Shown one piece after another: positions 24,208 to 51,816 of a stretch of 64,000 bases of DNA (position 1 is the first letter of the stretch; each line of letters begins with the position of its first letter). The position numbers and the translations under genes were made by a program. This stretch comes from an uncultured Candidatus Saccharibacteria bacterium. GTDB lineage: Bacteria > Patescibacteriota > Minisyncoccia > UBA6257 > 2-01-FULL-56-20. The stretch is taken from contig CAYIOP010000001.1 of assembly GCA_964365185.1 (NCBI GenBank), positions 34,675-98,674 of the forward strand, given 5' to 3'. Under the pieces are notes generated by a model that worked only from the letters and a program-made list of their open reading frames with translations, had not been told where the DNA came from and searched no databases.

Positions 24208-24316
24208 TTTATTTTTTCCGAAATAAATTTGAGAGGTGATTTTTAAGTAGGGTCCAAAAAGCCCCTACGATAAGCTTAATAGTTCTAATGCGTATTTTGA
24301 TACTTGGATTCATGGA

Positions 24317-26107: not shown

Positions 26108-26130
26108 AGATGATTTTTGTTTTTTTGATA

Positions 26131-26162
26131 CTATTCTCTAATTCGCGCGAATTAGAGAATAG
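26131..26162. repeat. 32-nt perfect palindrome between array members 2 and 3
   Basis: ctattctctaattcgc|gcgaattagagaatag, read directly. It is preceded on the + strand by a T-run. Confidence 0.5.
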
Positions 26163-26181
26163 TTGGATAGAAGCGCCTTAA

Positions 26182-27834
26182 TTATGATATTTCGGCTTGA
26201 TAACATTCAACGCAGGAAATTTTTTGAAAAGTAAGTTTGGGTGAATAGTAATGTTCAATCTCTTTTTGGCAATAGACACATTTTCCTTTTTGCGGCTCCA
26301 TCATTAGAGTTAAGGGGTGAAAGCGGTTTAGGGTTCGCCAGTCAAAATGTTGTCTTGGTAGAGGGATTTCATGCTCGCGGTAAAACTGAAGTTCTGACGG
26401 GGCAATATTATAGCTTAATTTGGTTTCTGGACAGATGATGCGTTGTTTAGTAATGTCGTCTTTAACATTATCTATTTTATCCGGTAGGTCTTCCGACCTA
26501 ACTCCAACGTATTCCGGATTTTTAGGTTCTTCCCATTTAGCTCCGAATTTTAAAGCGCCCTCTTTTGTTTCGGGAAACATAATTTGAGCGAGAGAATAGT
26601 TGTATCCAGCATAGGCGGCGCTAAGTGGAAAAAATTTTCCCCACTCCCCTCTTTGCTTCATATCTGTTTCTATCTTTTTCTTTAGCGTTTCGTATTCTTG
26701 TTGGCTATATTGTTTGTTTAAAATGCAATATTTTTTCTTTCTTAATCCCACGCAGCCAAAACAATATTCGCACTCTTCGCAGTTATCCAGATAAGCGCTG
26801 TAGCGACAATAGCCGGTATAGAGATTACAGAAATTTTCATATCCCCATTGGTCCAGGGAACTCCGGGCGCATTTTTCCGATGGGCAGCCCACCGCATCAA
26901 TGAGGTCTTTACCGTCTATTCCCCTTAAAGAATAGCGGCAATTTTCCGATCTTTCCAAAAAATAACAGCTATGGCAGTTTTTGTTTTCCAATAAAAAGTT
27001 GCCGCTGGAATTTGAAATTTGGACATTAAAATGCGCGCGGTGAATCGTGTCTTTTTGAAGATGGCTCCAAAATTCTTTTTTTAGTTTTTCGACAGCGGAA
27101 TAAGAATTGAGTTCAAAACTTTTTATTTTTTTAAAATATTCTTCTTTTGAATAAGGTTGGTTTAAAATATAATATTGTTTATTTCTCAAATTCCAGGACA
27201 TAAAACAGTTTTGACAGTTGCGGCAGTCATAGAGAAAAGCGCCTTCTATACAGTCACGTGAGTTGAAGCAGTGTCGCAGTTTGAATCCCTTAAAACAATA
27301 GAGGCAGTCATAACATTTTTCTAGTTCAAAACAATAAGTTATATCCAGAGAATTTTTCGAGGCGAAAGCCCTGTAGCCATAACTGATATCCTCGATTTTC
27401 CAAGCTGACCTGGTGAGGTAGCAATTTTTTGATTCCCAAACATCGTCGGTCCAGTCACAATTGGTGTTTCTAAGACCGGTTTGATGAGGATGAGGAACTT
27501 TGGCTTGAAGTTCCATTAATTGTTCAATAAAAGGCCGGGAGGCGTCATAATCGCGGCCGTAGGCTAAAGAATCCCAGGCGTCTGAGACAAATTCTTCCCG
27601 TTCGTAGATTGGAAAAGGCACGCTCTCGGGTAAGACGGTAATGAGCCGTTTACCGCTTAGGGCGGAATTGGTGATTCGAAAGCGGCCAAAAATCCAAAAG
27701 GACAAAAGATATTTCCATCGACAGAGTGGGCATTGGTCTGGCGTCGGCAAATCGAATCTACTATAGAATTCTTTGTCGATATCTTCTATTTGAAATTCTT
27801 TTTGGCAGTTTCGGCACGTTTTGTTTTCAGTCAT
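26182..27834 (-). CDS. Cys-rich zinc-ribbon family protein (tandem array member 3)
   Basis: Start placed at M13 (MTENKTCRNCQKEFQIEDIDKEFYSRFDLPTPDQCPLCR) to avoid a 34-nt overlap with the upstream gene. Internal CQNCFMSWNLRNKQYYILNQPYSKEEY and CEYCFGCVGLRKKKYCILNKQYSQQEY, and a C-terminal ISCVECYQAEIS. Confidence 0.55.
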   Translation of the reverse strand: MTENKTCRNCQKEFQIEDIDKEFYSRFDLPTPDQCPLCRWKYLLSFWIFGRFRITNSALSGKRLITVLPESVPFPIYEREEFVSDAWDSLAYGRDYDASRPFIEQLMELQAKVPHPHQTGLRNTNCDWTDDVWESKNCYLTRSAWKIEDISYGYRAFASKNSLDITYCFELEKCYDCLYCFKGFKLRHCFNSRDCIEGAFLYDCRNCQNCFMSWNLRNKQYYILNQPYSKEEYFKKIKSFELNSYSAVEKLKKEFWSHLQKDTIHRAHFNVQISNSSGNFLLENKNCHSCYFLERSENCRYSLRGIDGKDLIDAVGCPSEKCARSSLDQWGYENFCNLYTGYCRYSAYLDNCEECEYCFGCVGLRKKKYCILNKQYSQQEYETLKKKIETDMKQRGEWGKFFPLSAAYAGYNYSLAQIMFPETKEGALKFGAKWEEPKNPEYVGVRSEDLPDKIDNVKDDITKQRIICPETKLSYNIAPSELQFYREHEIPLPRQHFDWRTLNRFHPLTLMMEPQKGKCVYCQKEIEHYYSPKLTFQKISCVECYQAEIS

Positions 27835-27836
27835 AT

Positions 27837-29504
27837 TTAGATAACTTTTTGTTGGTAGCAACTTTCGCAAAAAATAATTTCGGGTTGGTCAGGAGCGAAA
27901 TTTGTTTTAATTGGTTTTTGACAGTTCGCGCAATTGCGATCAAATATTTTAATTGGTCCTCTTCTATTTATCCTAGCTTGGTGGCGACAGTAAAAGCAAT
28001 GCCGCGGGAGAGGTATGGACATGAGTTTATAAAACTGGAATTCAGCTTGAATGATTTTGTAGTTTCGTTTACAAGAAACGCAGGCGAGAATTTCGTCTAT
28101 AATTTTTTCTGAAATTTCGCTAATATCATCTGGAATCTTTTCTGATTTCAGAGTTTCTTTTCCGGTTGTTATTTGAAGATTATCTTCCCAGCGATAACCT
28201 TGGGCAAGGGCTTCGTCTTTAGTGAGCGGCAAGTTGTCTTGCGCAATAGTTTCGTTATAGGCGAAGAGATTAAGAGCTGGTGGGAAGAAGAGTCCATAAT
28301 CCCCCGCCTGAATAAGTTCCTGCTTGATTGTGTTCGTAATTTGCCGATATTCTTTTTCGTCGTAGCGTTTATTTAGAATTGAAAATTTGGAGTTTTTTAT
28401 GCCATCGCAACCGAAACATTCTTGGCTATTACGCGTGGCGAAGCAATAAGCGACATCTTGAGCGTTTTCCACCCACCAAGAGCTGATGACTCTGGCGCTA
28501 TAACCAGTGGCAACTGCTTCCAACAACAATTCGGAGTTGCGGCCATGGCCGATAATGTCGTAGGTGTCTTTTGCTAATTTAACCGAGAAAGAGTAGTTGA
28601 CGTTTTCACAAAAGGCTAATTCAAATGAGGAGCGACAATTTTTTGATTCAAAAATGTAGTCGCCGGTTACAGCCACACTTTTTAGATTGTTGTTTTCGCG
28701 GCGTGGGAATTTAAGAGAAAATTCATCAAAGTTTTTCGCGAATTCTTTTATGGCGCTATAGCTGCCGATAATTGGTTCGACTTTCTTTTTCCACTCTTCT
28801 TTAGAGAGCGGTTCATTTAGAAAATGGTATTTTTTATGGCGAAGATTAACACAACCGAAGCAATTTTGAAGACCGACGCAATTTAAGAGAAATGAGGAAT
28901 CGAGGCATTCGGAAACATTTTGAGACCAAGAGACGCCTTTGCTGTTGTGAATATTTACTCCTTCGTAAATGTTTTCTGATTTATCAATATTGTAGCCGTC
29001 AAAGACATTGCGGCACTGGAGCATTCCGCGAGAATAGGCGCAGTTTTCATTATTGGGTCCGGAGTTGGCGACGAGATAGCAGTCCTTGTTGCCGCCAGCA
29101 AAGTTTTCATACGGACTGTTTACGCTTTTCATTACGTCGCTGCGGTAAAGTGCACATTTAGGAACTGAATGGGTTAATTCTTTGAATTGATCGAAAAAAG
29201 GCCGATTTGAATTATAAACTCGGCCGTAAGAAAAAGAATCCCATTTATCGCTATGCCAGCAATCGGGACAATATACCGTGAAAGTTGAGGAAGGGCTATA
29301 CATTGAAATAATCGGCTCATGGCAGAGATCACAGGAACGATTATATAAAACAAATTCGTTTCGAAATTGGGCCTTTCTTTTAAAGCGGCATTCAGGACAT
29401 AAAATAGGCGCCGGAACGCCCATTTTTTTATAGAAAGTGAAGTCGTCGGGTTCGATGGTGAACCCATTTTTGCAATTCTGACAAATTCTTGAATCTTGGA
29501 TCAT
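27837..29504 (-). CDS. Cys-rich zinc-ribbon family protein (tandem array member 4)
   Basis: MIQDSRICQNCKNGFTIEPDDFTFYKKMGVPAPILCPECRFKRK at the N-terminus. Internal NCFGCVNLRHKKYHFLNEPLSKEEW, and a C-terminal CFYCRHQ...IIFCESCYQQKVI. Confidence 0.6.
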   Translation of the reverse strand: MIQDSRICQNCKNGFTIEPDDFTFYKKMGVPAPILCPECRFKRKAQFRNEFVLYNRSCDLCHEPIISMYSPSSTFTVYCPDCWHSDKWDSFSYGRVYNSNRPFFDQFKELTHSVPKCALYRSDVMKSVNSPYENFAGGNKDCYLVANSGPNNENCAYSRGMLQCRNVFDGYNIDKSENIYEGVNIHNSKGVSWSQNVSECLDSSFLLNCVGLQNCFGCVNLRHKKYHFLNEPLSKEEWKKKVEPIIGSYSAIKEFAKNFDEFSLKFPRRENNNLKSVAVTGDYIFESKNCRSSFELAFCENVNYSFSVKLAKDTYDIIGHGRNSELLLEAVATGYSARVISSWWVENAQDVAYCFATRNSQECFGCDGIKNSKFSILNKRYDEKEYRQITNTIKQELIQAGDYGLFFPPALNLFAYNETIAQDNLPLTKDEALAQGYRWEDNLQITTGKETLKSEKIPDDISEISEKIIDEILACVSCKRNYKIIQAEFQFYKLMSIPLPRHCFYCRHQARINRRGPIKIFDRNCANCQKPIKTNFAPDQPEIIFCESCYQQKVI

Positions 29505-39492: not shown

Positions 39493-40641
39493 ATGAAATC
39501 CGTAATTCTATACGCATATCCGCCGGAGCCGGATGGACTTTCGCAACAGGGTGATATGCTCTATCGGGGACTCAAAGAAATTGGCGAGGAGATACTCCCC
39601 TGCCACCTCTCGAGCGAATTTCAGAAGGAGTGGATTTATAAATTTTTAAAGCCCGACGTGGCCATCGGTGTTGGATTTTGGGGACACACCCAGGATATTA
39701 TTTTGCATCCGCAGAAATTCGGTATTCAGCCAGTGCCGTGGCTACTCGCGGATGGCTGGGTGGCGAATTACCACAAAGAAATCGGCGAGTTGCCACTTGT
39801 ATTTACCACGAGTGATTGGGTGGCTCGAACTTTTGCTCGGGATGGGGTGGATACTAAAAATTTTCAAACGCTCTATATTGGGCTTGATACTGAACTTTTT
39901 AAACCCATTCCACGCAGTGACCCGAGAGTGAAATTGATTCGAGAGATGATTGGAGTACGTGAGGATGAAGTGATGATTATGACTGCTGGAGGCGATGTGA
40001 CTTCTAAAGGCGCGCAGGAGGTTTTTAGGGCCTTAAAAAGAGTGGATGCCGAGTTTAAAAATTGGAAGTATGTTTGTAAAATTTGGGGCGGAGCAAGCGC
40101 GGATGACCACTACGACGACGAGATGGCTTTGATTGAGGAGTTAGGCGAGGAGGCGAAAGAAAAAATAATTTACCTTGAAGGTTCAATGTCTCGTGAGTTT
40201 ATGCCTTTACTTTTAAACGCCTGCGATATTTACGCGGCGCCTTCGCGGCTGGAGGGATTTGGAATGATACAAGTAGAGGCAATGGCGTGTGGTAAGCCAG
40301 TGATTTCAATTGACGAGATGGGGCCAAAGGAGACGATATTGCATGGCGAGACGGGTTTCTTGGCTAAAGTGGCTTCAACTGTGGATTTAACCGAGGAGTG
40401 GGCCTATGTGGGCTGGGGATTTGAGGAGGATCATAAAATTCAGTTTGAAAAACCCAAGACGTTTGCTTATCGGGCTGACGCAGACCAGATTGCGGAGTAT
40501 TTGCTTAAATTACTTACAGATAAAGATTTGAGAGAAAAAATGGGTGCTCGGGCTCGTGAACACGCGGTAGAAAAATTTGAGTACCGAAAAATCGCCAAGC
40601 AGATGACGGATGTGATTAAGGAGAAGTTTAATTTGAACTAG
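39493..40641 (+). CDS. GT4-family glycosyltransferase
   Basis: C-terminal EGFGMIQVEAMACGKPVIS, the GT-B E-x7-E motif region. Confidence 0.7.
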   Translation: MKSVILYAYPPEPDGLSQQGDMLYRGLKEIGEEILPCHLSSEFQKEWIYKFLKPDVAIGVGFWGHTQDIILHPQKFGIQPVPWLLADGWVANYHKEIGELPLVFTTSDWVARTFARDGVDTKNFQTLYIGLDTELFKPIPRSDPRVKLIREMIGVREDEVMIMTAGGDVTSKGAQEVFRALKRVDAEFKNWKYVCKIWGGASADDHYDDEMALIEELGEEAKEKIIYLEGSMSREFMPLLLNACDIYAAPSRLEGFGMIQVEAMACGKPVISIDEMGPKETILHGETGFLAKVASTVDLTEEWAYVGWGFEEDHKIQFEKPKTFAYRADADQIAEYLLKLLTDKDLREKMGARAREHAVEKFEYRKIAKQMTDVIKEKFNLN

Positions 40642-40662: not shown

Positions 40663-41673
40663 ATGGATAAAGGAATTTTTACTCAGCTTCCCGGAAAAAT
40701 AGTGGAATTAGATTCTCGATTTAAATATGTAATGGCGCTGGCTTTGAATTCTCGCTCGAATTATATGAATGGAATTATTCGATGTATTACTAAACGAGAT
40801 GGAGATTTGCAAATTAAGGGATACGCAGATCGAAGTGTTTTGTATCAAGTTAGGGGTGATTCTCTTAAAAATTTCTATATAGAAAACAAATTGAACATTA
40901 ATGGAGAAGAAGAATTAATTAATCAATTTAGTGGTGATGATTGGGATTTTATGGGTTTTGAAGACCCTGATATTTGGATTGATGATATGGATGATTTTAC
41001 GCATGTTTATTTTACAATTTCGCTCTGGAATAAAAAGCAGCGGCATACGTTCTGTCATTTGGGACATGCCGAAGGCGCAAATTTAGATTCATTAGAAATG
41101 ACAGAACCGGTGCTTATTGTTGATGAAAAAATTCGGAGGGCCAAGGAACCCTCGATTGCTCCGGTGAATAAAGGAGGGTTTCGATATAATTTAATCGAAT
41201 CTCGGTCAGATAAAGGACAATTTTCCTATTCTACAGTAAGGGTTGCAATTACTGAAAATATGGGCGAACCCTGGAAATTTGGTGAGACGGTATTGCATCC
41301 GGCCGAAAATAATATTCCGTGGATTGGCGGACACGCTTCACCTGGACCTCTACTGTCTCAAAATTTTATAGATGTTGGAGATGGAAAGTGTTTAGGTTTT
41401 TTAAATGGGCGAGAAGTTAATCAAAAAATTGGAGAAAATGTGCGGTATGGAACATTCTCTATTGGCCTTTTCATATATGACTACGAGAATGGAAAAATTG
41501 ATTGGGTCTCATCTAAACCTTTTATTCAGGATAGTGAGGCGAAAACTATAACTTTTGCCAGCCAATTTGTTCAAACTGGTGAGAATGACGGAATTTTATA
41601 CGCCCACGTTGATGATTCTTTTGTTCGGGCTTATGAAATTAGAGCAAATTTAATTAAACCTCTGTTGATTTAA
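40663..41673 (+). CDS. hypothetical protein, possible beta-propeller glycosidase-like (weak)
   Basis: 336 aa with an acidic DWDFMGFEDPDIWIDD stretch reminiscent of GH32/43/130-type propellers. It is flanked by 51-nt direct repeats derived from the GT4 3' end. Confidence 0.25.
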   Translation: MDKGIFTQLPGKIVELDSRFKYVMALALNSRSNYMNGIIRCITKRDGDLQIKGYADRSVLYQVRGDSLKNFYIENKLNINGEEELINQFSGDDWDFMGFEDPDIWIDDMDDFTHVYFTISLWNKKQRHTFCHLGHAEGANLDSLEMTEPVLIVDEKIRRAKEPSIAPVNKGGFRYNLIESRSDKGQFSYSTVRVAITENMGEPWKFGETVLHPAENNIPWIGGHASPGPLLSQNFIDVGDGKCLGFLNGREVNQKIGENVRYGTFSIGLFIYDYENGKIDWVSSKPFIQDSEAKTITFASQFVQTGENDGILYAHVDDSFVRAYEIRANLIKPLLI

Positions 41674-41680
41674 CTTGATT

Positions 41681-41731
41681 ATCGCCAAACAAATGGCGGA
41701 TAAGATTAAGGAGAAGTTTAATTTGAACTAG
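41681..41731 (+). repeat. 51-nt duplicate of the 3' end of the GT4 gene (direct repeat partner of 40591..40641)
   Basis: atcgccaaacaaatggcggataagattaaggagaagtttaatttgaactag versus atcgccaagcagatgacggatgtgattaaggagaagtttaatttgaactag. The last 30 nt are identical, and the copy encodes ...IKEKFNLN*. Confidence 0.6.
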
Positions 41732-41770: not shown

Positions 41771-41804
41771 TATACACTACTCTGCGATCGTAAAGTAGTG
41801 TATA
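41771..41804. repeat. hairpin repeat copy A (tatacactact-ctgcgatcgtaa-agtagtgtata)
   Basis: 11-bp perfect stem with a loop containing gcgatcg. A near-identical copy lies at 42431..42469. Confidence 0.55.
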
Positions 41805-41828: not shown

Positions 41829-42419
41829 ATGTTAAAAACTAGAAGTTTGACGTCTAAAATTTTGGAAGTTGTAAGCGAGGGTGTAATCTCAACTTTTGAT
41901 GTTATCGGCGCGATTTTAGAGTCCGGTTACGGCGCTTCTTATGCGAAACTTGATGCTAGTGTTCGACGCTCTGAGGCGAGGCGTCATAATCGTGAATTGG
42001 AGCTTCGCAATAGACAGAGATTTAGTAATTTAATTTCTAAATTGAAACGGGACGGTTTAATTACTGGCGATAAGCGATCTTTAAAGATCACCGAGGCCGG
42101 ACGTAAGAAATTTTTAAAAATTCGGGAAATTGAGCGAAGTAGAGTTATTCACTCTCCTTTTGGATATCAAGCTAAAGTAAGTCGAAATCTTACAATCGTT
42201 ATTTTTGATATCCCGGAGAAGGAAAAGGTTAAAAGAAATTGGCTGCGAGCGGTTTTACTAAATCTCGGTTTTAAATTGCTTCAGAAGAGTGTTTGGATCG
42301 GTCGAGTTATTATTCCTCGGGAGTTTTTGAAAGATCTTCGAAATATGAGAATTTTGGAGTACATTCACATATTTTCTGTATCTCGATCGGGGACAATTGA
42401 AAATGATAAGGATGGATAG
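41829..42419 (+). CDS. hypothetical protein with winged-helix-like N-terminus; C-terminal region loosely Cas2/VapD-like (speculative)
   Basis: 196 aa. RFSNLISKLKRDGLITGDKRSLKITEAGRKKF looks like an HTH wing. TIVIFDIPEKEKVKRNWLRAVLLNLGFKLLQKSVWIG resembles the beta-alpha-beta core of the Cas2 fold. The gene is flanked by hairpin repeats A and B. Confidence 0.3.
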   Translation: MLKTRSLTSKILEVVSEGVISTFDVIGAILESGYGASYAKLDASVRRSEARRHNRELELRNRQRFSNLISKLKRDGLITGDKRSLKITEAGRKKFLKIREIERSRVIHSPFGYQAKVSRNLTIVIFDIPEKEKVKRNWLRAVLLNLGFKLLQKSVWIGRVIIPREFLKDLRNMRILEYIHIFSVSRSGTIENDKDG

Positions 42420-42430
42420 TTTCCCTTATA

Positions 42431-42469
42431 AATATACACTACTATGCGATCGTAGATTGGTGTATATTT
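42431..42469. repeat. hairpin repeat copy B (aatatacac-tactatgcgatcgtagattg-gtgtatatt)
   Basis: Shares tatacactact[c/a]tgcgatcgta with copy A, in direct orientation and 660 nt apart. Confidence 0.55.
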
Positions 42470-42590
42470 ATGATGAAAATGGAAATTGATTTAGATTACT
42501 AATAGCTAAGCAGCAACTGGAATCCGCGGCGCCGTAATAGACCATAAGCCCTCCATTCTTTAGAACTGCTCCTTCGGGGTTTGAGCATTT
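42468..42590 (-). pseudogene. GH130 C-terminal gene fragment (40 codons) duplicating the 3' end of 44849..45823
   Basis: The minus-strand translation KCSNPEGAVLKNGGLMVYYGAADSSCCLAISNLNQFPFSS* matches FPEGAVIKNGKLMVYYGAADSSCCLAIYNFNNFLK*. An in-frame stop lies upstream of the fragment. A 24-nt stretch, tccgcggcgccgtaatagaccat, is identical in the two copies. Confidence 0.55.
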
Positions 42591-42609
42591 CTAGTATCGC
42601 ATCTCCATT

Positions 42610-43056
42610 TTATACTCTCCTATTTTTTAAATACTCAGGAAAAGTTTTTCGTTTATCTTTTTCGGTTTCGTCCGTTTTTTCTTCCAATATTGCCTTCAGA
42701 TATCCAAGTGGATCAGCTGGATCAATGTCACTCACATTAAATTCTTTTACAACCTTAAAATATTCTGGTTTGTACATTTCCGAAGGATGTTGTCTTCGGG
42801 GACCTTCATATATTTCTAGCATCGCATCTCCATTTTCAAAAAATACTAACATTGCAAAATTCTTAAGTTCTTTATCTTCCCCTATCTTAAGATACGCCGG
42901 ATCACGTCCTTGATGGAGGAATATCTCTTTGTTAGCGCTACCTCCCTCGCTATATTTATCTATACTTTTAAAATATTCATAAAGAGTTTCTGGCGTAAAT
43001 TTTTTGCTTTCTGATTCTTTAATTTGTTCCGATTCTTCTGGGTTTTCGTACTTCAT
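42610..43056 (-). CDS. hypothetical acidic protein
   Basis: 148-aa ORF, E/K-rich, with no motif recognised. A 22-nt internal segment (42813-42836) is duplicated just downstream of its stop (42590-42612). Confidence 0.3.
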   Translation of the reverse strand: MKYENPEESEQIKESESKKFTPETLYEYFKSIDKYSEGGSANKEIFLHQGRDPAYLKIGEDKELKNFAMLVFFENGDAMLEIYEGPRRQHPSEMYKPEYFKVVKEFNVSDIDPADPLGYLKAILEEKTDETEKDKRKTFPEYLKNRRV

Positions 43057-43153
43057 GATTATAATTATTTCTGATTATTATTTTTTGTCAATTTTTGTCT
43101 GTTTAGTACTATTTGTAAAACGTACTAACGCGAGAAAATTTGTACGCCAAAAG

Positions 43154-43181
43154 TTGACAAACAGGGGAATTATGCTATAAT
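43154..43181 (+). promoter_or_regulatory. sigma70-type promoter TTGACA-N16-TATAAT with upstream inverted-repeat operator candidate
   Basis: ttgaca at 43154-43159 and tataat at 43176-43181. Upstream, ttagtac-N12-gtactaa forms an inverted repeat at about 43104-43130. Confidence 0.45.
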
Positions 43182-43271
43182 CCCCTTGTTCTTGTCTCTC
43201 TTGTTATTTGATAAGTGAATAGCCGCTGTCTATGGGATAATCCATGGTCAGCGCAGTATTAACCATTTTTT

Positions 43272-44408
43272 TTGGCTATACGCCAAGAAAGGAAGTCCAC
43301 GATGACGGTTTCGACCAACATCGCTAGTTCTGCAAATATCTACTTCGGAGGTGAGTTGGTTCCGACCAACTCAGCTGGAGATATGGTATTTGCGATTGCT
43401 GGGACGCTGAGTAACGAAGTTATCAGTCGTCTGTCCAGGAAACTTTCGCGGAAACCAATGAGTTTCCAAGAACTTATTTATTCTTGTGACTACGAACTAT
43501 TGAGGCACTTGGCGACGGATGTCTATCTGCTTGTGATCCAACCAGGTCATGAAAAGCAATTCACGAATGAGGTAAGGGCTTTGGAATTGTGGAGGCAGGG
43601 CGCCCAGCGAGTACTTCTTATCCGCGGAGGTGCGTTGATTCTGGCAGAAAAAATGTCTGAATACACCCGTCGTAAGATTACGTCAAATTTGCCATCAAAC
43701 CGCATCTTGAAATGCCTTTGTGCTTTCGACGGTGTATCTATTCCAGGTCTGACAGGATTTGATCTTACTTCCGCATTTTCTGCGATTGCACTTGCACTGG
43801 AGCAGGTTGTGGAGGAAAAGGTTAAGGTACTACTCAAACTGGCTATCGTTGACACACTGATCAACGGACGTCGCCTTGAAGACTGCGTACCGATTGCGCT
43901 TCCCGGCCAGACCGCCTATCTCATTGGTGGTCTGTCGACTACCTCGCCCGATTCTCAGTCGTTTATACTAGGAACCAACCTTACTCGCGATGCATTTGAG
44001 CGTCTCTTGGGATTAGTGAATCCGGCGTCGGAGTTTCGTGAGCTAATCGCTGGCATCAAGCCGATTCTTGACCACATCATTACTGACACGTATGCCTTAG
44101 TGCATAATCGTGGAGGTGAGACGAAAGTCAAGGCGGTGGTCCTATGTAGTCATGGTGACCGGAAACTCCTCCTCACTCGCGGAGGCAGTATGCCTATTGT
44201 GAGAGAGGAGAGTGGAGCATTCTTTGTCCTCGACAACTTTGTCGACGAGATGTCCGACCAATACCCAGGTTTCAAACTTGGCGAAGCTTTGTACTCTGTC
44301 CGACAGCAGATCGCCAACGTTATCAGGATAAGAGCTGAGGTGCTCGGCGTGCTTGCTAATGCGTCACAGATGATTTCAACCATTTGGGCCGGAGGTAAGC
44401 AGTCATGA
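43272..44408 (+). CDS. hypothetical protein of GC-rich island (likely true start ATG 43302 with AGGAAG RBS)
   Basis: 378-aa ORF with clearly higher G+C and different codon choice (ctg, cgt, acc) than the flanks. No recognisable motif. Its stop overlaps the next start (ATGA). Confidence 0.45.
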   Translation: MAIRQERKSTMTVSTNIASSANIYFGGELVPTNSAGDMVFAIAGTLSNEVISRLSRKLSRKPMSFQELIYSCDYELLRHLATDVYLLVIQPGHEKQFTNEVRALELWRQGAQRVLLIRGGALILAEKMSEYTRRKITSNLPSNRILKCLCAFDGVSIPGLTGFDLTSAFSAIALALEQVVEEKVKVLLKLAIVDTLINGRRLEDCVPIALPGQTAYLIGGLSTTSPDSQSFILGTNLTRDAFERLLGLVNPASEFRELIAGIKPILDHIITDTYALVHNRGGETKVKAVVLCSHGDRKLLLTRGGSMPIVREESGAFFVLDNFVDEMSDQYPGFKLGEALYSVRQQIANVIRIRAEVLGVLANASQMISTIWAGGKQS

Positions 44409-44692
44409 TGATGGAATACAGAATTATGCTGATTGTTATCTTTATGATGGCATGCCTATGCTTTTTTGGGAGCATTCGACGTCTCGTAAGCACCGACAAA
44501 GAAAAGTACATTACTTTCGGAATCTTCTTCCTGTTTGTGGGGATAGCGTCAGCCATTGCAATTAGCCTCGAAGGGCAATACTATGCCGAAGGGCAATACT
44601 CTACTTTTTCAGGCGTCGACTATTCCATCCAATTCTTCGTGTTGGTTCTAGAGTCTGGATATCTCTTCCATGTCACCAAATGGGGAGAGTAA
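44405..44692 (+). CDS. small membrane protein (95 aa, 2-3 TM) translationally coupled to upstream island gene
   Basis: MMMEYRIMLIVIFMMACLCFFGS...FGIFFLFVGIASAIAISL hydrophobic helices, with an ATGA overlap at 44405-44408. Confidence 0.45.
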   Translation: MMMEYRIMLIVIFMMACLCFFGSIRRLVSTDKEKYITFGIFFLFVGIASAIAISLEGQYYAEGQYSTFSGVDYSIQFFVLVLESGYLFHVTKWGE

Positions 44693-44816
44693 GCAGACCC
44701 GTCTTTCTGAATGACGGATTGATACGTCCTTCATCTGGGATGCTGACTCTTTCCGCCAGCAGTATGAAGCGCTCCTGACGAGACCACAAAAATAGCAATT
44801 TTTCAGAAACCTATAA

Positions 44817-44850
44817 CCGGCTCCGAGACAATGTCTTGGAGCCGCTTTTT
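44817..44850 (+). terminator. Rho-independent terminator of island operon
   Basis: ccggctccgagac-aat-gtcttggagccg followed by cttttt. The T-run overlaps the stop of the convergent GH130 gene. Confidence 0.45.
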
Positions 44851-45823
44851 ACTTTAGAAAATTATTGAAGTTGTAGATAGCTAGACAGCAGCTGGAGTCC
44901 GCGGCGCCGTAATAGACCATTAGCTTTCCATTTTTTATCACCGCGCCTTCTGGAAAAGTGACATTATTTACAATCCCCTTTCTTTCATAAAGTTTTTGAG
45001 GTTCTAGGATTGGTCTTTCAGATTGCCACAAAACTTCTCGTGGATTTTTTAAGTCCAAAAGCGCGGCGTGGATGGGCCACACTTTTTTTCCTATAGCAGG
45101 ACCACAATAAATTAAAAGCCAGCCCTTGCTAGTTTTGATTGGTGGTGCGCCTAGCTCTGGACCGCGCAGAGCGCCGCGGGGAGGCAGGAGCACGGCGTGT
45201 TTATCAAAGTTGGTGAAAATTTTACCCCAATAATTCTTGGGAGGATGGAACAGTTCTTTTGTGTCCTTAAATTCAGTGTAGAGAATAGAGGAGTCCACTT
45301 TGTCGGGATGCCAGGTGAATAACATTCCGATTTTTCCGTTAATTTTCGCTGGGAAAATTGCCGCAGCTTTGGCTCGGACTTGGTCTGGTTTTGGCCCAAT
45401 AAAGCCATGCTTCTGAATTTTCTTAAAATCTTTGGTTGTGGCTAGAGCGATTCCGGGTACTTCCTTTTTGGAATATGCCGGTTTTGACATGGCTGTGTAG
45501 AAAATGTAATAGGTGTCACCGAGTTTGGTTATTCGAGGGTCTTCGCAGCCGAATTGATTCCAGGGGTGATCTGGTTTTATAAGGGGTTTTGCCGAGCGGG
45601 AAAAATTTATGCCATCCTTACTAGTGGCGTAGCCGATGGAAGAAATGTAATTAGTATAACCACCGGCAGGTCTTGGCTTGAATCCGGCTCGAACCGCGCG
45701 ATAGACCATATGGAAAATTCCATTTTCATAGACCACGGATGGATTAAAAACCGAACCGGCTTCCCAAAAGTTTTTGGGGTTGGGTTTTAAAATTGGATTT
45801 CTTGGGTAGCGGATAAGTTTCAT
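44849..45823 (-). CDS. GH130-family glycoside hydrolase/phosphorylase (5-bladed beta-propeller)
   Basis: NPIL.P....WE..SVFNPSVVYENGIFHMVYRAV, GYATSKDG and GCEDPRITKLGDTYYIFYTA are hallmark GH130 motifs. Confidence 0.7.
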   Translation of the reverse strand: MKLIRYPRNPILKPNPKNFWEAGSVFNPSVVYENGIFHMVYRAVRAGFKPRPAGGYTNYISSIGYATSKDGINFSRSAKPLIKPDHPWNQFGCEDPRITKLGDTYYIFYTAMSKPAYSKKEVPGIALATTKDFKKIQKHGFIGPKPDQVRAKAAAIFPAKINGKIGMLFTWHPDKVDSSILYTEFKDTKELFHPPKNYWGKIFTNFDKHAVLLPPRGALRGPELGAPPIKTSKGWLLIYCGPAIGKKVWPIHAALLDLKNPREVLWQSERPILEPQKLYERKGIVNNVTFPEGAVIKNGKLMVYYGAADSSCCLAIYNFNNFLK

Positions 45824-46881
45824 AAACCGGGATTCTGCTTAAGAGTTTCGATAAGTTCAGCTAAATTTACTTTAGCGACCGCAATTAAATGGTCGGCGGC
45901 GCCGTAGTAGATGTAGAGATTATTGTCGAAAATAGCGGTGCCGGTTGGGAAAACAACATTGCTGACATCGCCGACTTTTTCCCAAGATTCATCTGGACCA
46001 AAGAAAGGTTCTTTTAAACGGCCGAGGACTTTTTGGGGATTTTCCAAATCTAAGAGTGCGGCGCTCGCTCGATAGATGCGACCGTGATTGGTTTCTTCAA
46101 CGGAATGAAGCAGAAAAAGCCAGCCATCTTTGGTTTTGATGGGTGGGGCTCCGCCGCCGATGTGGCGGGTTTCAAACCAATATCGGTTTTCTAGCACAAC
46201 AAAATCTGGAAGATGGTTTAAATAATTCACCCAAAAATCTCTAGATTTTAATTGTTTAAAATTATCAAAATAAACAATCTGAATATCCGGCAGAATTCGG
46301 TGTAATAGAGCAAATTTTCCTCCAATTTTTTCGGGAAATAAAACCGCATCCTTTTCCCAAAGCAGGATGTCCTTGCCGCCGAATTCTTCGTAGAAGGATT
46401 CAAACATCGCGTATTGGTCTTTGAGATGCTCGGCACGCAGGATTTCGCCGACTTCATCATAAGTTAATTGGGGACTGATAATTCCATCTTTTTTCCAGTT
46501 TTTTAAGTCCGCGCTTGTGGCAAGCGCGACAACCGCGTTTTTGCCGTCGTGGGCCGTATACGTCATATAGAACGTGTTTTCGATTTTGACGATACGCGGA
46601 TCTTCTACTCCCATTACTTCATACATCGCCTCGCGTTCAATCAGAGGTTTATCGAGGCGTTCGATGACCTCGGTTGGGCCTTTGAGTTTGGCATAGCCGA
46701 TTCTGGATTTAGTATTTTCATTTGTGTCCATCTTATCTTGACCGATGGCCCGATAAAAAATATGGACGTATTCGTCGTCTTGATAAACAGCTGGATTTAA
46801 AACCGCTTTATTTTCAAAAATATTTTCCGTGGGTTTTAGAATTGGTCCGAGTTTTTCAACTTTCATTGTAAATTTTGACAA
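45820..46881 (-). CDS. GH130-family glycoside hydrolase/phosphorylase, paralog
   Basis: NPAVYQDDEYVHIFYRAIG and GVEDPRIVKIENTFYMTYTAHDG. The gene has 4-nt overlaps with both neighbours. Confidence 0.7.
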   Translation of the reverse strand: MSKFTMKVEKLGPILKPTENIFENKAVLNPAVYQDDEYVHIFYRAIGQDKMDTNENTKSRIGYAKLKGPTEVIERLDKPLIEREAMYEVMGVEDPRIVKIENTFYMTYTAHDGKNAVVALATSADLKNWKKDGIISPQLTYDEVGEILRAEHLKDQYAMFESFYEEFGGKDILLWEKDAVLFPEKIGGKFALLHRILPDIQIVYFDNFKQLKSRDFWVNYLNHLPDFVVLENRYWFETRHIGGGAPPIKTKDGWLFLLHSVEETNHGRIYRASAALLDLENPQKVLGRLKEPFFGPDESWEKVGDVSNVVFPTGTAIFDNNLYIYYGAADHLIAVAKVNLAELIETLKQNPGL

Positions 46882-48068
46882 AAATTATGCGCATAGAGAT
46901 ACGCGCCGGCGCTCCAGGCCTGGAAAGGCGAGGCGGAACCAGTGACTTTGCCGGTTTTGCCGCCTAGCCATTCGGCGAAGCCGAACTGTGATTTTTTGAT
47001 AGCGGCGATTTTTTTCCAATCATTACTGGTTTGTTGATTGGCCTTGGCTAAGAGTTCTAGTTCTTTTGTGGCTTTGCGGGAGTCCCCTGCCTTGGCTAAA
47101 GCGGCCACGTAAAATCCGCCGATCATTGGCCAGATGCCGCCGTTTAAGTAGTGGTAGGGTTCGCGAGCTTCGCATTCATCGAAGTACGAATGCCACGCCG
47201 TCGCTGAAGCTTTGACGCGCGAAGTATTCCCTTTTGGTTTTATAATTGGCGGGTAAATTGATTTGCAGGGAAAGGGTCGGTTGATTTTATTTTTTTCGAT
47301 GTATTGAAGGATGTTCTTGGCGATTTTGGGAGTAGCTAAGCCGCTTACAATCGCAAGGAGATTTCCCAAGGTATCGAACCACTCTTCGCTTTCGCGGGTT
47401 TTGGGACTGTGAGTTTTCCAAACCCAAGGACGATAGTAGCCGAGTTTGGTGTCATAAAGTGAAAGATATTTCTTGATTTCGCCGTTGACTACTTTTTTTA
47501 GATGAGCGGCTTGTTTATTTTTCCCGTAGAGCGTGAGCGCCCAAAAATAGAGGGCTTCGGTGTTAATCACGCGGCCGTATTTGTGGGGGAAAGCATCTTC
47601 CCAGTCCATAGTTGGCTGTTGGACTAAAAGAGTATCTTCGTTCGGATCTTGGTATTCGAGCCAGGTGAAAGCGGAGTTGATATTTTGGCGGTATTTTTTA
47701 AGCAGAGATTTATCTTTGTAGTTAGTCGCATAAGTTTGGTGACCGATTAGATACCAAAGAGTTGAATCAATGGAATTAAAAGTAACATCCGAACGGCGTT
47801 CGGTATTCCATGAGCCCACGGCGTTAGGAATCTGGCCGTGACGGGATTGGTTTTTTGAGAGTAATTCAATACTTTTCTGAAAAGGAATTTTAAATTTATC
47901 GTTGATAGTTGAGGCGCCAAGGCCAGTAATCATACTGTCGCGCGCCCAGGTGGCTTCGTAACCGCCGGGCAGACCCGAGGCATAGAAGCCGGTTTTTTTA
48001 GCGCAGTGTTCCAGGACTTTGATGGCTTTTTGGGAGGCGAGATTTACTATGATCGATTTGTTCGACAT
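46863..48068 (-). CDS. (alpha/alpha)6-barrel glycoside hydrolase (GH15/GH63/GH125-like; family uncertain)
   Basis: YEATWARDSMITGLG (a Y..W.RD motif), an NGGIWP loop, and a repeated aromatic-rich helical hairpin pattern. It sits in a cluster with GH130 genes. Confidence 0.45.
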   Translation of the reverse strand: MSNKSIIVNLASQKAIKVLEHCAKKTGFYASGLPGGYEATWARDSMITGLGASTINDKFKIPFQKSIELLSKNQSRHGQIPNAVGSWNTERRSDVTFNSIDSTLWYLIGHQTYATNYKDKSLLKKYRQNINSAFTWLEYQDPNEDTLLVQQPTMDWEDAFPHKYGRVINTEALYFWALTLYGKNKQAAHLKKVVNGEIKKYLSLYDTKLGYYRPWVWKTHSPKTRESEEWFDTLGNLLAIVSGLATPKIAKNILQYIEKNKINRPFPCKSIYPPIIKPKGNTSRVKASATAWHSYFDECEAREPYHYLNGGIWPMIGGFYVAALAKAGDSRKATKELELLAKANQQTSNDWKKIAAIKKSQFGFAEWLGGKTGKVTGSASPFQAWSAGAYLYAHNFCQNLQ

Positions 48069-48158
48069 GCTCGAAATGTTAGAATTGTGGGTTAATTATA
48101 TCATTAAAAATAAAAATTTCTCTTTAGTAAGCCGTCAGAGTAAGAAAGATAAATAGAG

Positions 48159-48551
48159 TTACTCTGGTTTAACTCTTTTTCTATCTACTAGAATTAGTAT
48201 CCCAGCGATAATCAACATAATTTTTGGCATACTGATTAATGTTGGTGCAAGTAGACCAATACCAATTGCTATAATTGCTCCTAATTTGCGTGTCGTTTCT
48301 AGACTAATACGAAGCCAACTCCAATTAAGATCAAGTACGCCATTAATTAGAAATAATGTTATAAAACTTACTATTCCGCCCGTAAGTTCCATAAAACCTA
48401 TTACTTCCTGGTTAAAAGCAGTCAAAATTCCAGTCGTAGCATAACTAGCATCAAATATTAAAAAATACAGACCATGCAAAACTAGGAGAGTGGCGGAGAT
48501 TATTATGAGTATAAAACCTATTTTTGTAAGCTTTTCCATTTTACAGTTCAA
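48159..48551 (-). CDS. hypothetical small membrane protein (4 TM)
   Basis: 130 aa and almost entirely hydrophobic. Its start overlaps the upstream gene's stop. Confidence 0.35.
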   Translation of the reverse strand: MNCKMEKLTKIGFILIIISATLLVLHGLYFLIFDASYATTGILTAFNQEVIGFMELTGGIVSFITLFLINGVLDLNWSWLRISLETTRKLGAIIAIGIGLLAPTLISMPKIMLIIAGILILVDRKRVKPE

Positions 48552-50761
48552 TTTTCTTTAATTTCCTCAATCGCGAGGCGGGCTAAAAGATAAGAAATAG
48601 TGGATTCGGCGCCTTGGTTCAAATTAATCGCGTATTGGCCTACGCCGTCGTAACAGCCACCGGTCGATTCGTCATAAACCATTTGGCCTAAGTGATTTTT
48701 GCCTAAAAACCAGTTAAAGACCCGATAAGCATCATCTAGATATTCTTTCTCGCTGGTGATTTTGTGGGCAATGATTAGGGTCTCGGCCATAGTGGCGGTT
48801 TCTTCGGGTTGCTGATCAAAGTAGGCTCGCTGTTTATTTCTGAAATACCAGCCGTTTTGACCAATCGGCATAAAGTGGTCTTTTTCAAAAGTGATTTGGC
48901 GCAAAAAATCCAAAGTTTTTTTGGCGACCTCGAGATAGTTTTTATTTTTAGTTAAGTCAAAAGCATAAAATAGGGATTCCGGAAGTTTGCTATTGGAATA
49001 AGTGAGCTGATTTTCAAACCAATGCCAATTTTCGGAAGCATATTCGTTATAGGTTGCGAGTTGATAGCGGGCCAGTTTTTCAAATTCTTTTAGGAGTTTA
49101 GAGTTAGGCTGTTCTTTGAGGTAATAATAAAGTCCTGTCATGGCAAAGCCGATTGCGCGTGGCGATTTTATCTTAGGTAAAATTTTGGTGGCTGTGATAA
49201 ATAGTTTACGGGCCAGAGTAATTGTTTCTTCGGGCAAAGAATTTTGCGCGGCGATAAACCCAAGCGCCCAGATGGCCCGGCCTTGCACGTCTTCGTCGCT
49301 TGTACCGTCTTTAACTTTTTGATATGAGACAATATTGGCAAAAGTGCCGGATGGTCGCTGGGTGAATTTGATGAAATTCAAATAGGTTTTGATTAATTTT
49401 TTTAAGTCTTCTGATGGCGCAATTAGATAACTTTTAGCGGCGACAATCAGCGCTCGAGTGTTATCGTCTAAACTGTAGCCGTAGCGTTTTTCGGGTTTGG
49501 AATACTTGGCAAAGTGCATTACCCCGAAGTCATCGGTGAGCCGCATAAGGTGGTCAAGTTTAAACTCCGGAAATTTATTATCTTCAGCTTCTAAATCAGA
49601 GAACTGTTTATAGAGTTTAAAATAAGATGTTGCCACATTGGACCAGGTCATGGGACGGGTTGATTCGTAGGCTTCACGACCCATGGCTTTAATTCGTTTT
49701 TCATCGGCTAAAAGAGTTAGAAGTGATTTGGTAATAGCTTGAGGATTGCGAGATGGAACCAAGAGACCATTTTTATCATTAATAAGGTATCGGGCGTAGG
49801 AGGTGGCGGTCGAGATTACCGGGCGGCCGCAACCTAAGGCATAAGAGAGGGTGCCGCTTACTGATTGACCTTCATCGACGGTGGGTGAAACGTAAATGTC
49901 GGTGGCTTTAAGGTGAGTGAGGAGTTCGTCGAGGTTAAGATACTTATTGTAAAACTTGACGTGATTTTCTAGGCCTAATTTTTGGGTCTCCTGTTCGAGT
50001 GAATTTCGATAGGTCTCGCCTTTATGGCGGATGATATTGGGATGAGTGGCGCCGATAATAAGATAAATTAGATTGGGGAATTTTTGAACTACTTCGGGCA
50101 GAGCTCGAATAGCATATTGAACACCTTTGTTGGGACTTAAAAAGCCAAAAGTTGAGAGCACTATTTTGTCACCTAATCCGAGTTCGGATTTAAATTTCTC
50201 AGATGCTTCAAGTGAGGTTTGGGGAATACCATGCGGGATGATAACGACTTTTGAAGCTGGCACTCGATAATCGGAAAGTAAAACATTCTTGGAGAGTTTA
50301 TTCATCACGACCAGCGCCACAGCTTTTTCTGCTATGGCCTTAACCACGCTTAAAAGTTCTTCGTCTGGATTTTCCAAAACCGAATGGAAAGTAATAATCA
50401 CCGGTTTTTCTATAACTTGAATAAATGGGATAATATAATCGCCCCAATTGCCGCCGAAGAGGCCAAATTCGTGCTGAATATTGATGATTTTGACGTCATT
50501 TCGTTCATTTAGCTCTTTGGCTAAGCTTACGTAGTAGCTGATCTCGTTAACATTTATTTCCTTTAAAATTTTCTTGCTGTTGTAGTTGTAAATGCTGGTC
50601 GGATTTTCGTTTAAGGCAATGATTCGGGATTTAACCGCGGGGTTAAATTTATTATCAAAGGCCGCGGTGATGTCTTGAGTAAAAGTGGCAATGCCGCATT
50701 CTCGGGGCGGATAAGAACTGATGTGAACAATATAGGTATTTTCCTTATCTTTTATTTTCAT
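48548..50761 (-). CDS. GT4 glycosyltransferase fused to C-terminal alpha-helical toroid domain
   Basis: The N-terminal 400 aa form a GT-B glycosyltransferase (EGQSVSGTLSYALGCGRPVIST). The C-terminal 330 aa are an aromatic-rich helical-repeat domain resembling six-hairpin glycosidases. Confidence 0.5.
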   Translation of the reverse strand: MKIKDKENTYIVHISSYPPRECGIATFTQDITAAFDNKFNPAVKSRIIALNENPTSIYNYNSKKILKEINVNEISYYVSLAKELNERNDVKIINIQHEFGLFGGNWGDYIIPFIQVIEKPVIITFHSVLENPDEELLSVVKAIAEKAVALVVMNKLSKNVLLSDYRVPASKVVIIPHGIPQTSLEASEKFKSELGLGDKIVLSTFGFLSPNKGVQYAIRALPEVVQKFPNLIYLIIGATHPNIIRHKGETYRNSLEQETQKLGLENHVKFYNKYLNLDELLTHLKATDIYVSPTVDEGQSVSGTLSYALGCGRPVISTATSYARYLINDKNGLLVPSRNPQAITKSLLTLLADEKRIKAMGREAYESTRPMTWSNVATSYFKLYKQFSDLEAEDNKFPEFKLDHLMRLTDDFGVMHFAKYSKPEKRYGYSLDDNTRALIVAAKSYLIAPSEDLKKLIKTYLNFIKFTQRPSGTFANIVSYQKVKDGTSDEDVQGRAIWALGFIAAQNSLPEETITLARKLFITATKILPKIKSPRAIGFAMTGLYYYLKEQPNSKLLKEFEKLARYQLATYNEYASENWHWFENQLTYSNSKLPESLFYAFDLTKNKNYLEVAKKTLDFLRQITFEKDHFMPIGQNGWYFRNKQRAYFDQQPEETATMAETLIIAHKITSEKEYLDDAYRVFNWFLGKNHLGQMVYDESTGGCYDGVGQYAINLNQGAESTISYLLARLAIEEIKEN

Positions 50762-50766
50762 GGTCT

Positions 50767-51816
50767 TCAGCCAGTTCGGCTATCGCGATAATTGCGCTTA
50801 AGTTCATCTAAGAGTGGTTGGAGTTCGACTTTAGCAACGGCAATAAATTTATCGGCGGCTCCGTAGTAGATATATAAATCTTTGCCAAAAATGGCGGTGC
50901 CGGTTGGAAAGGTGACATTTGAAACGAAACCGCTTTTTTCCCAGTCCAGATCCGGAGAGAAAAGTGGATAAGTTAGTCGGCCAATAACCTTCATGGGATT
51001 TTTTTTGTCCAGTAGCGCGGCGGCGGCGTGATAAATTCTGGCTTTGTTTAATTCTTCGACCGCATGATAAATTAAAAGCCAGCCATCTTTGGTTTCAATC
51101 GGTGGCGCGCCGCCGCCAATATTTCGCGACTCAAACCAAAATTTATTTTCGAGTAAAACATATTTCGGTAAATTTTTAAGGTATTTTTTCCAAAAAGAAT
51201 TTTTTTGGATTTCTTTGAAACTTTTAAAAAAAATAATTTGGATGTCGGGAAGGATTCGGTGAATAAGAGCAAAACGGCCTTTAAATTTTTTTGGAAAAAG
51301 GAAGGCGTCTTTCTCCCAAAGATAAACTTCTTTGCCAGAGTATTCTTCATAATACGACTCGAACATAAAATATCGATCCTTCAGTTTTTCTTTGGCAAAG
51401 ATTCGACCGATCGTGTCGTATCTCATTTTGGGACTGATAATTCCCTTGCGGTCAAAATTTTTCAAATCCGAACTAGTGGCGTAAGCGCAGAGAGCGTTTT
51501 TTCCGTCGTGGGCGACGTAGGTCATATAAAAAGTGTCGCCAATTTTAACGATTCGAGGGTCTTCAACCCCTTTTTTCTCGTAGAGATGCGTGCCGGTTAG
51601 AATTGGTCGGTCCCAACGCTCCACTACTTTAGTTGGTCCATTAAGTTTGGCGTAGCCAATGCTGGAATTTAATTTTTTATCGATGGCTCGATAGAAAACG
51701 TGAACTGTTTCGCCATCTTGATAAATTCCCGGATTTAAAACCGATCGGGTTTCAAATTTATTTTCTGTTGGTGCAAGAACAATGCCCAACTTTTGGACTT
51801 TTAATTTTCCTTTCAT
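50767..51816 (-). CDS. GH130-family glycoside hydrolase/phosphorylase, paralog
   Basis: NPGIYQDGETVHVFYRAID and GVEDPRIVKIGDTFYMTYVAHDG. Co-linear with 45820..46881 over its whole length. Confidence 0.7.
   Translation of the reverse strand: MKGKLKVQKLGIVLAPTENKFETRSVLNPGIYQDGETVHVFYRAIDKKLNSSIGYAKLNGPTKVVERWDRPILTGTHLYEKKGVEDPRIVKIGDTFYMTYVAHDGKNALCAYATSSDLKNFDRKGIISPKMRYDTIGRIFAKEKLKDRYFMFESYYEEYSGKEVYLWEKDAFLFPKKFKGRFALIHRILPDIQIIFFKSFKEIQKNSFWKKYLKNLPKYVLLENKFWFESRNIGGGAPPIETKDGWLLIYHAVEELNKARIYHAAAALLDKKNPMKVIGRLTYPLFSPDLDWEKSGFVSNVTFPTGTAIFGKDLYIYYGAADKFIAVAKVELQPLLDELKRNYRDSRTG

Follow-up and report, generated by a model that had tools for sequence, protein, structure and literature searches.

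A putatively acquired ORFan gene cassette with a conserved 5′ block and a candidate conflict function in an uncultured Candidatus Saccharibacteria bacterium

Introduction

In the abortive-infection pair RexA/RexB of lambda, the gene of a cytosolic sensor is followed by that of a small membrane effector with multiple transmembrane (TM) segments, and the hok/mok/sok systems are translationally coupled membrane toxins with structured mRNAs. Here, we describe a gene cassette with a related layout from an uncultured Candidatus Saccharibacteria bacterium (GTDB lineage Bacteria; Patescibacteriota; Minisyncoccia; UBA6257; 2-01-FULL-56-20). The cassette lies within a stretch of 64,000 nucleotides (nt) of the assembly GCA_964365185.1 (contig CAYIOP010000001.1, positions 34,675 to 98,674 of the forward strand), which is referred to as the window and to which all positions below refer, unless a second locus is named. 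It consists of a gene for a cytosolic protein (gene A), a coupled gene for a small membrane protein (gene B) and a divergent gene (g0). An initial annotation, made from the sequence alone, had regarded A and B as a candidate defence or toxin-like pair on acquired DNA. A further described system that pairs a membrane protein with a cytosolic protein is Kiwa, which comprises KwaA and KwaB, respectively (bioRxiv 10.1101/2023.02.26.530102 / PMC11785009). The genes of the cassette, with lengths in amino acids (aa) and open reading frames (ORFs) without described relatives termed ORFans, are as follows.

42610–43056, minus strand: g0, a 148-aa acidic soluble protein (isoelectric point 5.1), divergent to A–B
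43302–44408, plus strand: gene A, a 368-aa cytosolic protein with two homologous domains of ~180 aa, ORFan family
44405–44692, plus strand: gene B, coding for a polytopic membrane protein of 95 aa, with a start codon that overlaps the gene A stop

Comparison with described systems

The cassette resembles Kiwa as an accessory operon in which a small polytopic membrane protein is combined with a cytosolic partner of ~300–370 aa, although a complex of the two is only predicted here. It differs in gene order, since the cytosolic gene comes first, whereas KwaA (4 TM segments) is encoded upstream in Kiwa. The membrane partner with its 95 aa and 2–3 TM segments and the extra gene g0 are further differences, and no match to a KwaA or KwaB model or Pfam family was obtained. 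The succession of a cytosolic gene and a small multi-TM membrane gene on apparently acquired DNA is also found in RexAB. However, no RexA or RexB domain was detected with Pfam (E up to 1) or PADLOC, the cassette is not located in a prophage, and protein A is an internally duplicated two-domain protein without a fold match. As in hok/mok/sok, the frame of a membrane protein is coupled to an upstream frame, and the 5′ part of the mRNA is predicted to be structured and is conserved at the nucleotide level. In contrast to these systems, the upstream frame encodes a conserved 368-aa protein, the membrane protein has a size of 95–118 aa and no conserved antisense promoter was found. Features of phage lysis cassettes were likewise absent: neither gene B nor the membrane proteins of the related locus L003 (see below) matched the lysis category of PHROG, and Pfam showed no lysozyme or amidase domain in protein A. 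Because each membership feature that could be tested (family hidden Markov models, domains and gene order) was lacking, the cassette should not, in our view, be filed under Kiwa, RexAB or hok/mok, which it resembles in layout.

Homologues of the cassette genes

Among ~15 billion proteins, the family of gene A has three members only, namely the protein of the window (P0001), P0002 and P0003, which originate from three metagenome sources. P0002 (45% identity over the full length) was the sole relative recovered when HMMER was run exhaustively over 1.8 billion cluster representatives, while P0003 was gained by a profile search and shares 45% identity with P0001 and 81% with P0002. The exact gene A protein is confined to contigs designated Hain_H43_01um, the names of which suggest replicate 0.1-µm filter fractions from the Hainich groundwater well H43. 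Given this provenance, the host is likely to be an ultra-small bacterium of Patescibacteria type. All other contigs that bear the cassette belong to this same H43 population and are 99.97–100% identical to the window, so that population polymorphism could not be used. Comparisons at the DNA level cover two loci, the window and the locus of P0003 (L003).

No match above noise was obtained for A, B, g0 or their relatives in Pfam (scanned at E values up to 1), NCBIfam, PHROG or PADLOC, and neither single-sequence nor profile searches yielded a sequence match in the PDB. This agrees with the earlier description of A as a protein of no known family. Sub-threshold Pfam matches were seen for gene B (PalH and DUF2165) and none for protein A. 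In PADLOC-DB v2, gene B had ZorA as its sole match (E 0.013, 12 bits, driven by the TM segments), and protein A, g0, P0002, P0003 and the partner genes of these two relatives had none. Of the defence-database checks that the initial annotation had proposed, the one with PADLOC was thus negative for every family member in either lineage. Nor did gene A belong to a metabolic enzyme family kept in a core-genome context, an outcome that had been named as contrary to a defence or toxin-like role: no family was matched, and the context in L003 is different.

A profile search with g0 recovered the two known g0 proteins only, and the cassette had no tblastn match in phage and plasmid records. Scans of genome, metagenome and viral collections for the protein and leader patterns returned no locus, which is a weak negative, as known positives were also not recovered. 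The family is new by exclusion, and it is one among very many metagenomic ORFan families.

Protein A

The longest frame of gene A (43272–44408) corresponds to 378 aa when counted from a TTG codon, which is the size given in the initial annotation. We place the start at the ATG at 43302 on the basis of the spacing to the ribosome-binding site (AAAGGAAG, 43288–43295, 6 nt upstream), of an equivalent methionine start in both homologues and of the 368 aa predicted by gene callers. The TTG at 43272 was rejected as a start codon; it is out of frame in L003. While the length of 378 aa does not hold, the protein is soluble as had been stated: it lacks a TM segment, and its maximum 19-residue Kyte–Doolittle hydropathy (KD19) is 1.33.

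In each of the three family members, the N-terminal (1–190) and C-terminal (191–368) halves are homologous to each other (E 2e-8 to 1e-15), and protein A is modelled as a pseudo-dimer of two homologous alpha/beta domains. The half-domain structure model reached a predicted local distance difference test (pLDDT) score of 61, the single-sequence model was poor, and no fold match was found for the domain model. D73 and Y75 are the sole polar residues that are invariant in all six half-domains, all other invariant positions being hydrophobic. Conserved residues of catalytic type and catalytic or toxin-like motifs were not found. With D73 and Y75 as the only polar exceptions among hydrophobic invariant positions, protein A is more likely to bind or scaffold partners than to act as an enzyme. 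The ratio of non-synonymous to synonymous substitutions (dN/dS) between the window and L003 is ~0.26 over codons 53–368 (Nei–Gojobori method), and gene A is under purifying selection.

Gene B and unit composition

The stop codon of gene A and the start codon of gene B overlap in the sequence ATGA (44405–44408), and the next gene likewise overlaps gene A by 4 nt in all three contigs of the family. Gene B has two clear TM segments (residues 1–29 and 34–58) and a hydrophobic C-terminal stretch, in keeping with the coupled protein with 2–3 TM segments that had been described before. It is the orthologue of the third operon gene of L003, which encodes 118 aa (E 7e-5 to 3e-5), and both proteins have the C-terminal motif ESGYL-x-x-(V/I)T(K/R)W in common. 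Within gene B, an 18-nt tandem duplication is present at 44570–44600 (GAAGGGCAATACT twice); it yields the peptide EGQYYAEGQY in the loop ahead of the last hydrophobic segment.

In L003, a 100-aa acidic ORF is followed by a promoter with a score of 12/12, a leader of ~115 nt, the 368-aa gene, genes for membrane proteins of 103 aa and 118 aa (each with a 4-nt overlap with the preceding gene) and a terminator. g0 and the 100-aa ORF that precedes the homologue align collinearly (N-terminal match with E 3e-5 plus a C-terminal match). By this comparison, g0 is a conserved neighbour of the module, although its orientation in the window is inverted relative to L003. The unit hence comprises three genes in the window and four in L003. 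A counterpart of the 103-aa gene is absent from the window, and tblastn detected no remnant of it in 44693–44817. This interval between the stop of gene B and the terminator has a length of 125 nt and contains no ORF, compared to 46 nt in L003. On the 2.4-kb contig of P0002 (JGI 3300075153), a 92-aa ORF precedes the 367-aa gene, which overlaps by 4 nt with a frame that runs off the contig end; in this frame, which codes for at least 210 aa, the two membrane proteins of L003 are probably fused.

Two side observations were made on the L003 contig. At its end (~11303–11363, minus strand), ~180 nt past the terminator of the module, an apparent 3′ half of a tRNA gene was found (TGGTAGCGCTATCGGGATTTGAACCCG...); ARAGORN gave no call for this partial gene, which is cut by the contig end. 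At a distance of 6.4 kb from the module (712–4004, minus strand), a 541-aa HATPase_c_3 protein with weak matches to TmtA and phrog_6203 is encoded together with three small ORFan genes. The HATPase_c_3 protein may be a defence-type neighbour, but is not convincing as such.

Promoters, palindromes and terminator

The signals for expression of the cassette are the following.

43064–43091, minus strand: promoter-like site of g0, TTGACA-16-AATAAT, 11/12
43103–43128, no strand: inverted repeat TTAGTAC-N12-GTACTAA, located between the −35 boxes of the divergent promoters
43154–43181, plus strand: sigma-70 promoter of A–B, with TTGACA (43154–43159), a 16-nt spacer and TATAAT (43176–43181)
43164–43185, no strand: palindrome GGGGAATTAT-GC-TATAATCCCC around the −10 box, flagged as a stem-loop in both loci
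44818–44844, plus strand: intrinsic terminator, with a 12-bp stem (8 GC pairs) followed by a T run

The promoter of A–B, previously described as near-consensus, is a perfect TTGACA-16-TATAAT site (12/12) with a TG extension and was the best site in a 3-kb scan. A 12/12 promoter is found at the equivalent position in L003. As the −10 box of g0 ends 7 nt before its ATG, the g0 mRNA is predicted to be leaderless.

The inverted repeat had been regarded as operator-like. It is present as a single copy in the 64-kb window (0.05 chance matches expected at up to two mismatches), but has no counterpart in L003, where the −10 palindrome is kept instead as GGGGGATTACGCTATAATCCCC. The latter is a candidate operator or, alternatively, a candidate terminator for upstream read-through. 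The clean intrinsic terminator reported earlier was recovered, and its stem is kept in L003 (82% over 44 nt, E 6e-5). In the window, the T run and the stop codon of a convergent GH130 gene overlap. A repeated regulatory motif was considered and rejected, as no second copy of the −10 palindrome, of the inverted repeat or of the terminator exists in the window.

Promoter, coupling and terminator are conserved in L003, which supports a real, self-contained unit that is maintained by selection. The self-contained character claimed for the module therefore stands, whereas the number of two genes does not.

A conserved and structured 5′ block

Four hairpins are predicted for the 5′ part of the A–B transcript.

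43191–43291, plus strand: 5′ leader with three hairpins, z-scores of the folds −3.4 to −5.2
43191–43215, plus strand: hairpin P1, in the leader
43225–43252, plus strand: hairpin P2, pairing kept through two double changes and one single change compared to L003
43267–43291, plus strand: hairpin P3, helix U8GGC/GCCAAGAAAG, with the 3′ arm overlapping the 5′ part of the ribosome-binding site
43331–43394, plus strand: hairpin P4, 64 nt within the coding sequence (codons 11–31)

Comparison of the window and L003 revealed a block of 306 nt with an identity of 81.7% (E 5e-79), the left edge of which coincides with the first base of the −35 hexamer (43154), while the right edge lies close to codon 52. 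Upstream of this block and over the remainder of gene A, the two loci share no detectable nucleotide similarity. The leader is 77% identical in the two loci. Within gene A, codons 1–52 have a dS of 0.135 and a dN of 0.179, compared to a dS of ~2.2 and a dN of 0.56 for codons 53–368 (both Nei–Gojobori), and sliding windows gave an identity at synonymous sites of ~0.9 over codons 1–50.

Across both loci, the z-scores of the hairpins range from −3.4 to −5.8. P4 has a folding energy of −29.8 kcal/mol (z −5.1), which is similar to −29.3 kcal/mol (z −5.8) for its equivalent in L003, and its apex is a perfect palindrome (GAGTTGG-N6-CCAACTC, 43353–43372) that is identical in both. One double and three single changes separate the two versions of P4, and all affected positions are still paired. 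Taking P1, P2 and P4 together, 9 of 40 stem pairs vary and all nine remain paired, which, in a comparison of two sequences, is suggestive of a conserved RNA structure, but not decisive in statistical terms. Two readings of the block can be given: it may have a function at the nucleotide level, as a cis-regulatory RNA or a DNA site, or it may be a patch of recent recombination.

Hairpins that mask the ribosome-binding site are found in FourU-type RNA thermometers and similar leaders. P3 is comparable in that its run of eight U residues forms a weak, AU-rich helix with the purine stretch AAGAAAG, which overlaps the 5′ part of the ribosome-binding site. It differs in that the GGAAG core is unpaired in the minimum-energy fold and that no Rfam match is obtained. 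The three other hairpins of the cassette, one of them inside the coding sequence, have no FourU counterpart. Rfam showed no match in the leader, the window giving only one tRNA at gathering score. The best match in 43050–43400 was an L31-Coriobacteria leader on the minus strand with 21.7 bits (E 0.26), which is below the gathering score of 33. A conserved upstream ORF in the leader was rejected, as L003 lacks an ATG for the 27-codon frame that begins at 43246 in the window. A conserved antisense promoter in the block was also rejected, as the minus-strand sites reach only 9/12 in the window and are missing in L003.

Insertion and acquisition

The cassette is contained in an insert of ~2.3 kb (~42579–44856), which comprises g0, the divergent promoters, A, B and the terminator, and is bordered as follows.

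42482–42578, minus strand: orphaned GH130 gene end (last 32 codons only), left border of the insert
44857–44953, minus strand: 3′ end of the intact GH130 gene (44849–45823), right repeat copy and right border of the insert

A repeat search identified these two segments as a direct repeat of 97 nt with 77% identity. In tblastn, the left copy shares 84% aa identity with residues 291–322 of GH130a (E 6e-14), compared to 41% and 33% with the other two GH130 paralogues. With 0.49, gene A has the highest guanine–cytosine (GC) content of the 53 ORFs of the window (mean 0.406, standard deviation 0.031; z ~+2.7), while the value for L003 gene A (~0.46) is in line with its host. The genomic contexts are different: the cassette is located between a PaaX/Cas2-like gene and GH130 in the window, and the unit of L003 between an FG-GAP/fn3 protein and the partial tRNA. 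Acquisition of this DNA, which had been assumed in the initial annotation, is indicated by the outlying GC content of gene A, by the orphaned end of GH130 at the left border and by the non-syntenic context in L003. We conclude that the cassette is, as far as can be read from its sequence, a horizontally acquired and autonomously expressed accessory unit of an ORFan family.

The status of an island, which had also been assigned to this DNA, appears to be partially supported. Direct repeats built from the 3′ end of a target gene (97 nt, the last 32 GH130 codons) are a feature of integrative elements and are present here. Pfam detected no recombinase domain in g0, A or B, the sole genes of the 2.3-kb insert; the wider window was not scanned for recombinases. 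With regard to an integron gene cassette, the boundaries are duplicates of a gene end and not a shared attC-like repeat, with no intI search having been made.

Orphaned 3′ gene ends are left by displacement insertions, which have been ascribed to homology-facilitated illegitimate recombination (PMC5361080, PMC3240628). The insert resembles such cases in that cargo lies beside a conserved anchor gene, with a diverged 3′ end of the anchor on the far side. The pattern occurs twice in the window, at a GH130 end and at a GT4 end. The published cases are arrays of effector–immunity genes of type VI secretion systems (T6SS) and Rhs, whereas the anchors found here belong to glycan metabolism and the cargo is ORFan. 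Read from the scar, the insertion could have occurred by homology-facilitated illegitimate recombination, with site-specific or Campbell-type integration as alternatives.

The second insert carries a single gene for a 336-aa ORFan (40663–41673, GC 0.364) without a family match. It is flanked by a 51-nt direct repeat (40591–40641 and 41681–41731, 90% identical), in which the final 16 codons of the gene for the GT4 glycosyltransferase are duplicated. Just past the stop of g0, positions 42587–42611 repeat a g0-internal segment (42812–42836) at 24 of 25 bases (NGDAILEM vs NGDAMLEI in frame); this 25-nt repeat marks the left insert junction as a scar of recombination. The two adjacent single-unit inserts with orphaned 3′ ends of neighbouring genes represent a readable scar of gene gain in these small genomes.

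Proposed function

In the mechanism we propose, A and B would be transcribed from the consensus sigma-70 promoter, with its −10 box inside the palindrome, to the conserved intrinsic terminator. The first ~270 nt of the mRNA would fold into the four conserved hairpins, one abutting the ribosome-binding site and one in codons 11–31, so that translation of A would be throttled or conditional in spite of strong transcription, and B would be made only upon translation of A. From the coupling of the genes, A may dock on B, and in the relatives also on the second small membrane protein, to form a membrane-associated complex. In a conflict role, B would act as the membrane effector, A as a sensor or gate and g0 as a modulator. 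Such a function, as an abortive-infection-like defence or a toxin/immunity-type module, is the single most likely one, although we put it forward tentatively. It is ranked first because of the tight control of expression, the small membrane partner, the rarity and patchiness of the family and the insertion beside other single-gene inserts. If true, the cassette would represent a new defence or toxin architecture, built from proteins without relatives or fold, in lineages whose immunity is barely charted. Whatever the function of the cassette, the frozen leader and first 52 codons (dS 0.135 vs ~2.2) around conserved hairpins are a candidate for a new translational control element. Taken as a whole, a previously unseen membrane-acting conflict module of few uncultured groundwater-type bacteria, gated by a new cis-regulatory element of ~300 nt from the −10 palindrome to P4 that is nearly unchanged even at synonymous sites while the remainder of gene A is saturated with changes, appears doubtful.

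Several points weigh against a conflict function. There is no positive sign of defence or toxicity, with PADLOC and PHROG without a match in both lineages, and the viral, phage and plasmid collections searched contain no match to the family. The neighbouring genes are not convincing as defence genes, neither the PaaX/Cas2-like regulator and the ORFan in the window nor the distant HATPase_c_3 protein in L003. The transcription start and expression of A–B are predictions, and a physical interaction between A and B is suggested by gene coupling. As the second membrane gene of L003 is absent from the window, the window copy may be reduced. Furthermore, with two DNA sequences compared, the conservation of the 5′ block could be due to a recent recombination patch rather than functional constraint.

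The same module could also serve outside conflict, as an adaptor in the envelope, in transport, signalling or host interaction, with A as a scaffold anchored by B and the cassette spread by ordinary recombination between related lineages. The lack of a catalytic or toxin signature in the pseudo-dimeric, scaffold-like protein A and the missing defence or phage family match fit such a role, as do the surrounding glycan-metabolism genes (GT4, three GH130, GH100 and GT1). The flanking repeats, being gene ends with 77–90% identity, point to a related donor lineage and not to a phage or plasmid. However, three members among ~15 billion proteins, the non-syntenic contexts and a dedicated consensus promoter together with pronounced structure around the translation start argue against such a role. 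The adjoining ORFan insert would likewise be more usual for dispensable genes of conflict or of mobile elements than for physiological ones, and we consider a role outside conflict possible, if rather unlikely. It is improbable that the cassette was left by a decayed mobile element or prophage, as a remnant or as cargo in which small membrane proteins of a holin-like lysis or superinfection-exclusion type are combined with an accessory protein. The holin size of the small membrane proteins with 2–4 TM segments, the location of the insert at the 3′ end of a gene and the duplication of this target end, the partial tRNA close to the L003 copy and the g0 fragment at the left junction would all be in line with this origin. 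No integrase, endolysin or phage-family match was found in or beside the cassette, though, and the viral, phage and plasmid searches were empty. The compact unit and its signals are intact in two lineages that are 55% diverged in protein and are therefore maintained rather than decaying.

The 5′ block could also be the target or template of an antisense or trans-acting RNA, B being a toxic membrane protein that would require translation of A in the way that hok requires mok. The conserved synonymous sites over codons 1–52, the conserved leader, the extensive 5′ structure and the coupling of A and B would suit a type-I-toxin-like system, and the −10 palindrome resembles a minus-strand terminator hairpin in both loci. 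The missing minus-strand promoter in the block (window 9/12 only, L003 none) speaks against it, and gene A is large, conserved and under purifying selection, which goes beyond a mere coupling frame. With B at 95–118 aa exceeding typical type I toxins, we regard this reading as very improbable. A set of spurious or decaying ORFs with signals that match by chance is hardly credible. The lack of a known domain, the poor single-sequence structure model, the missing membrane gene of the window copy and its 125-nt non-coding spacer before the terminator could be taken in this sense. It is contradicted by a 368-codon frame that stays open in three independent metagenomes at 45–81% identity, by the dN/dS of ~0.26 and by the conservation of promoter, ribosome-binding site, coupling and terminator. 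A defence or toxin role, as raised in the initial annotation, stays hypothetical.

Further features of the window

The cassette is located at the edge of a glycan-metabolism cluster (44849–51816, minus strand), which encodes three GH130 paralogues, a GH100/GDE_C protein and a 737-aa GT1 protein. On the other side, the PaaX_M/Cas2-like winged-helix gene (41829–42419) is flanked by two 34-nt palindromes at 41771–41804 and 42433–42466 (TATACACTACT...AGTAGTGTATA), which are 88% alike and have no other copies in the window. They may be operators of the PaaX-like regulator or cassette ends; a role as the operator of the cassette was rejected, as the sequences differ. At 22501–29504, the window contains four tandem paralogous genes on the minus strand (555–596 aa), which have repeat families of 66–120 nt in common.

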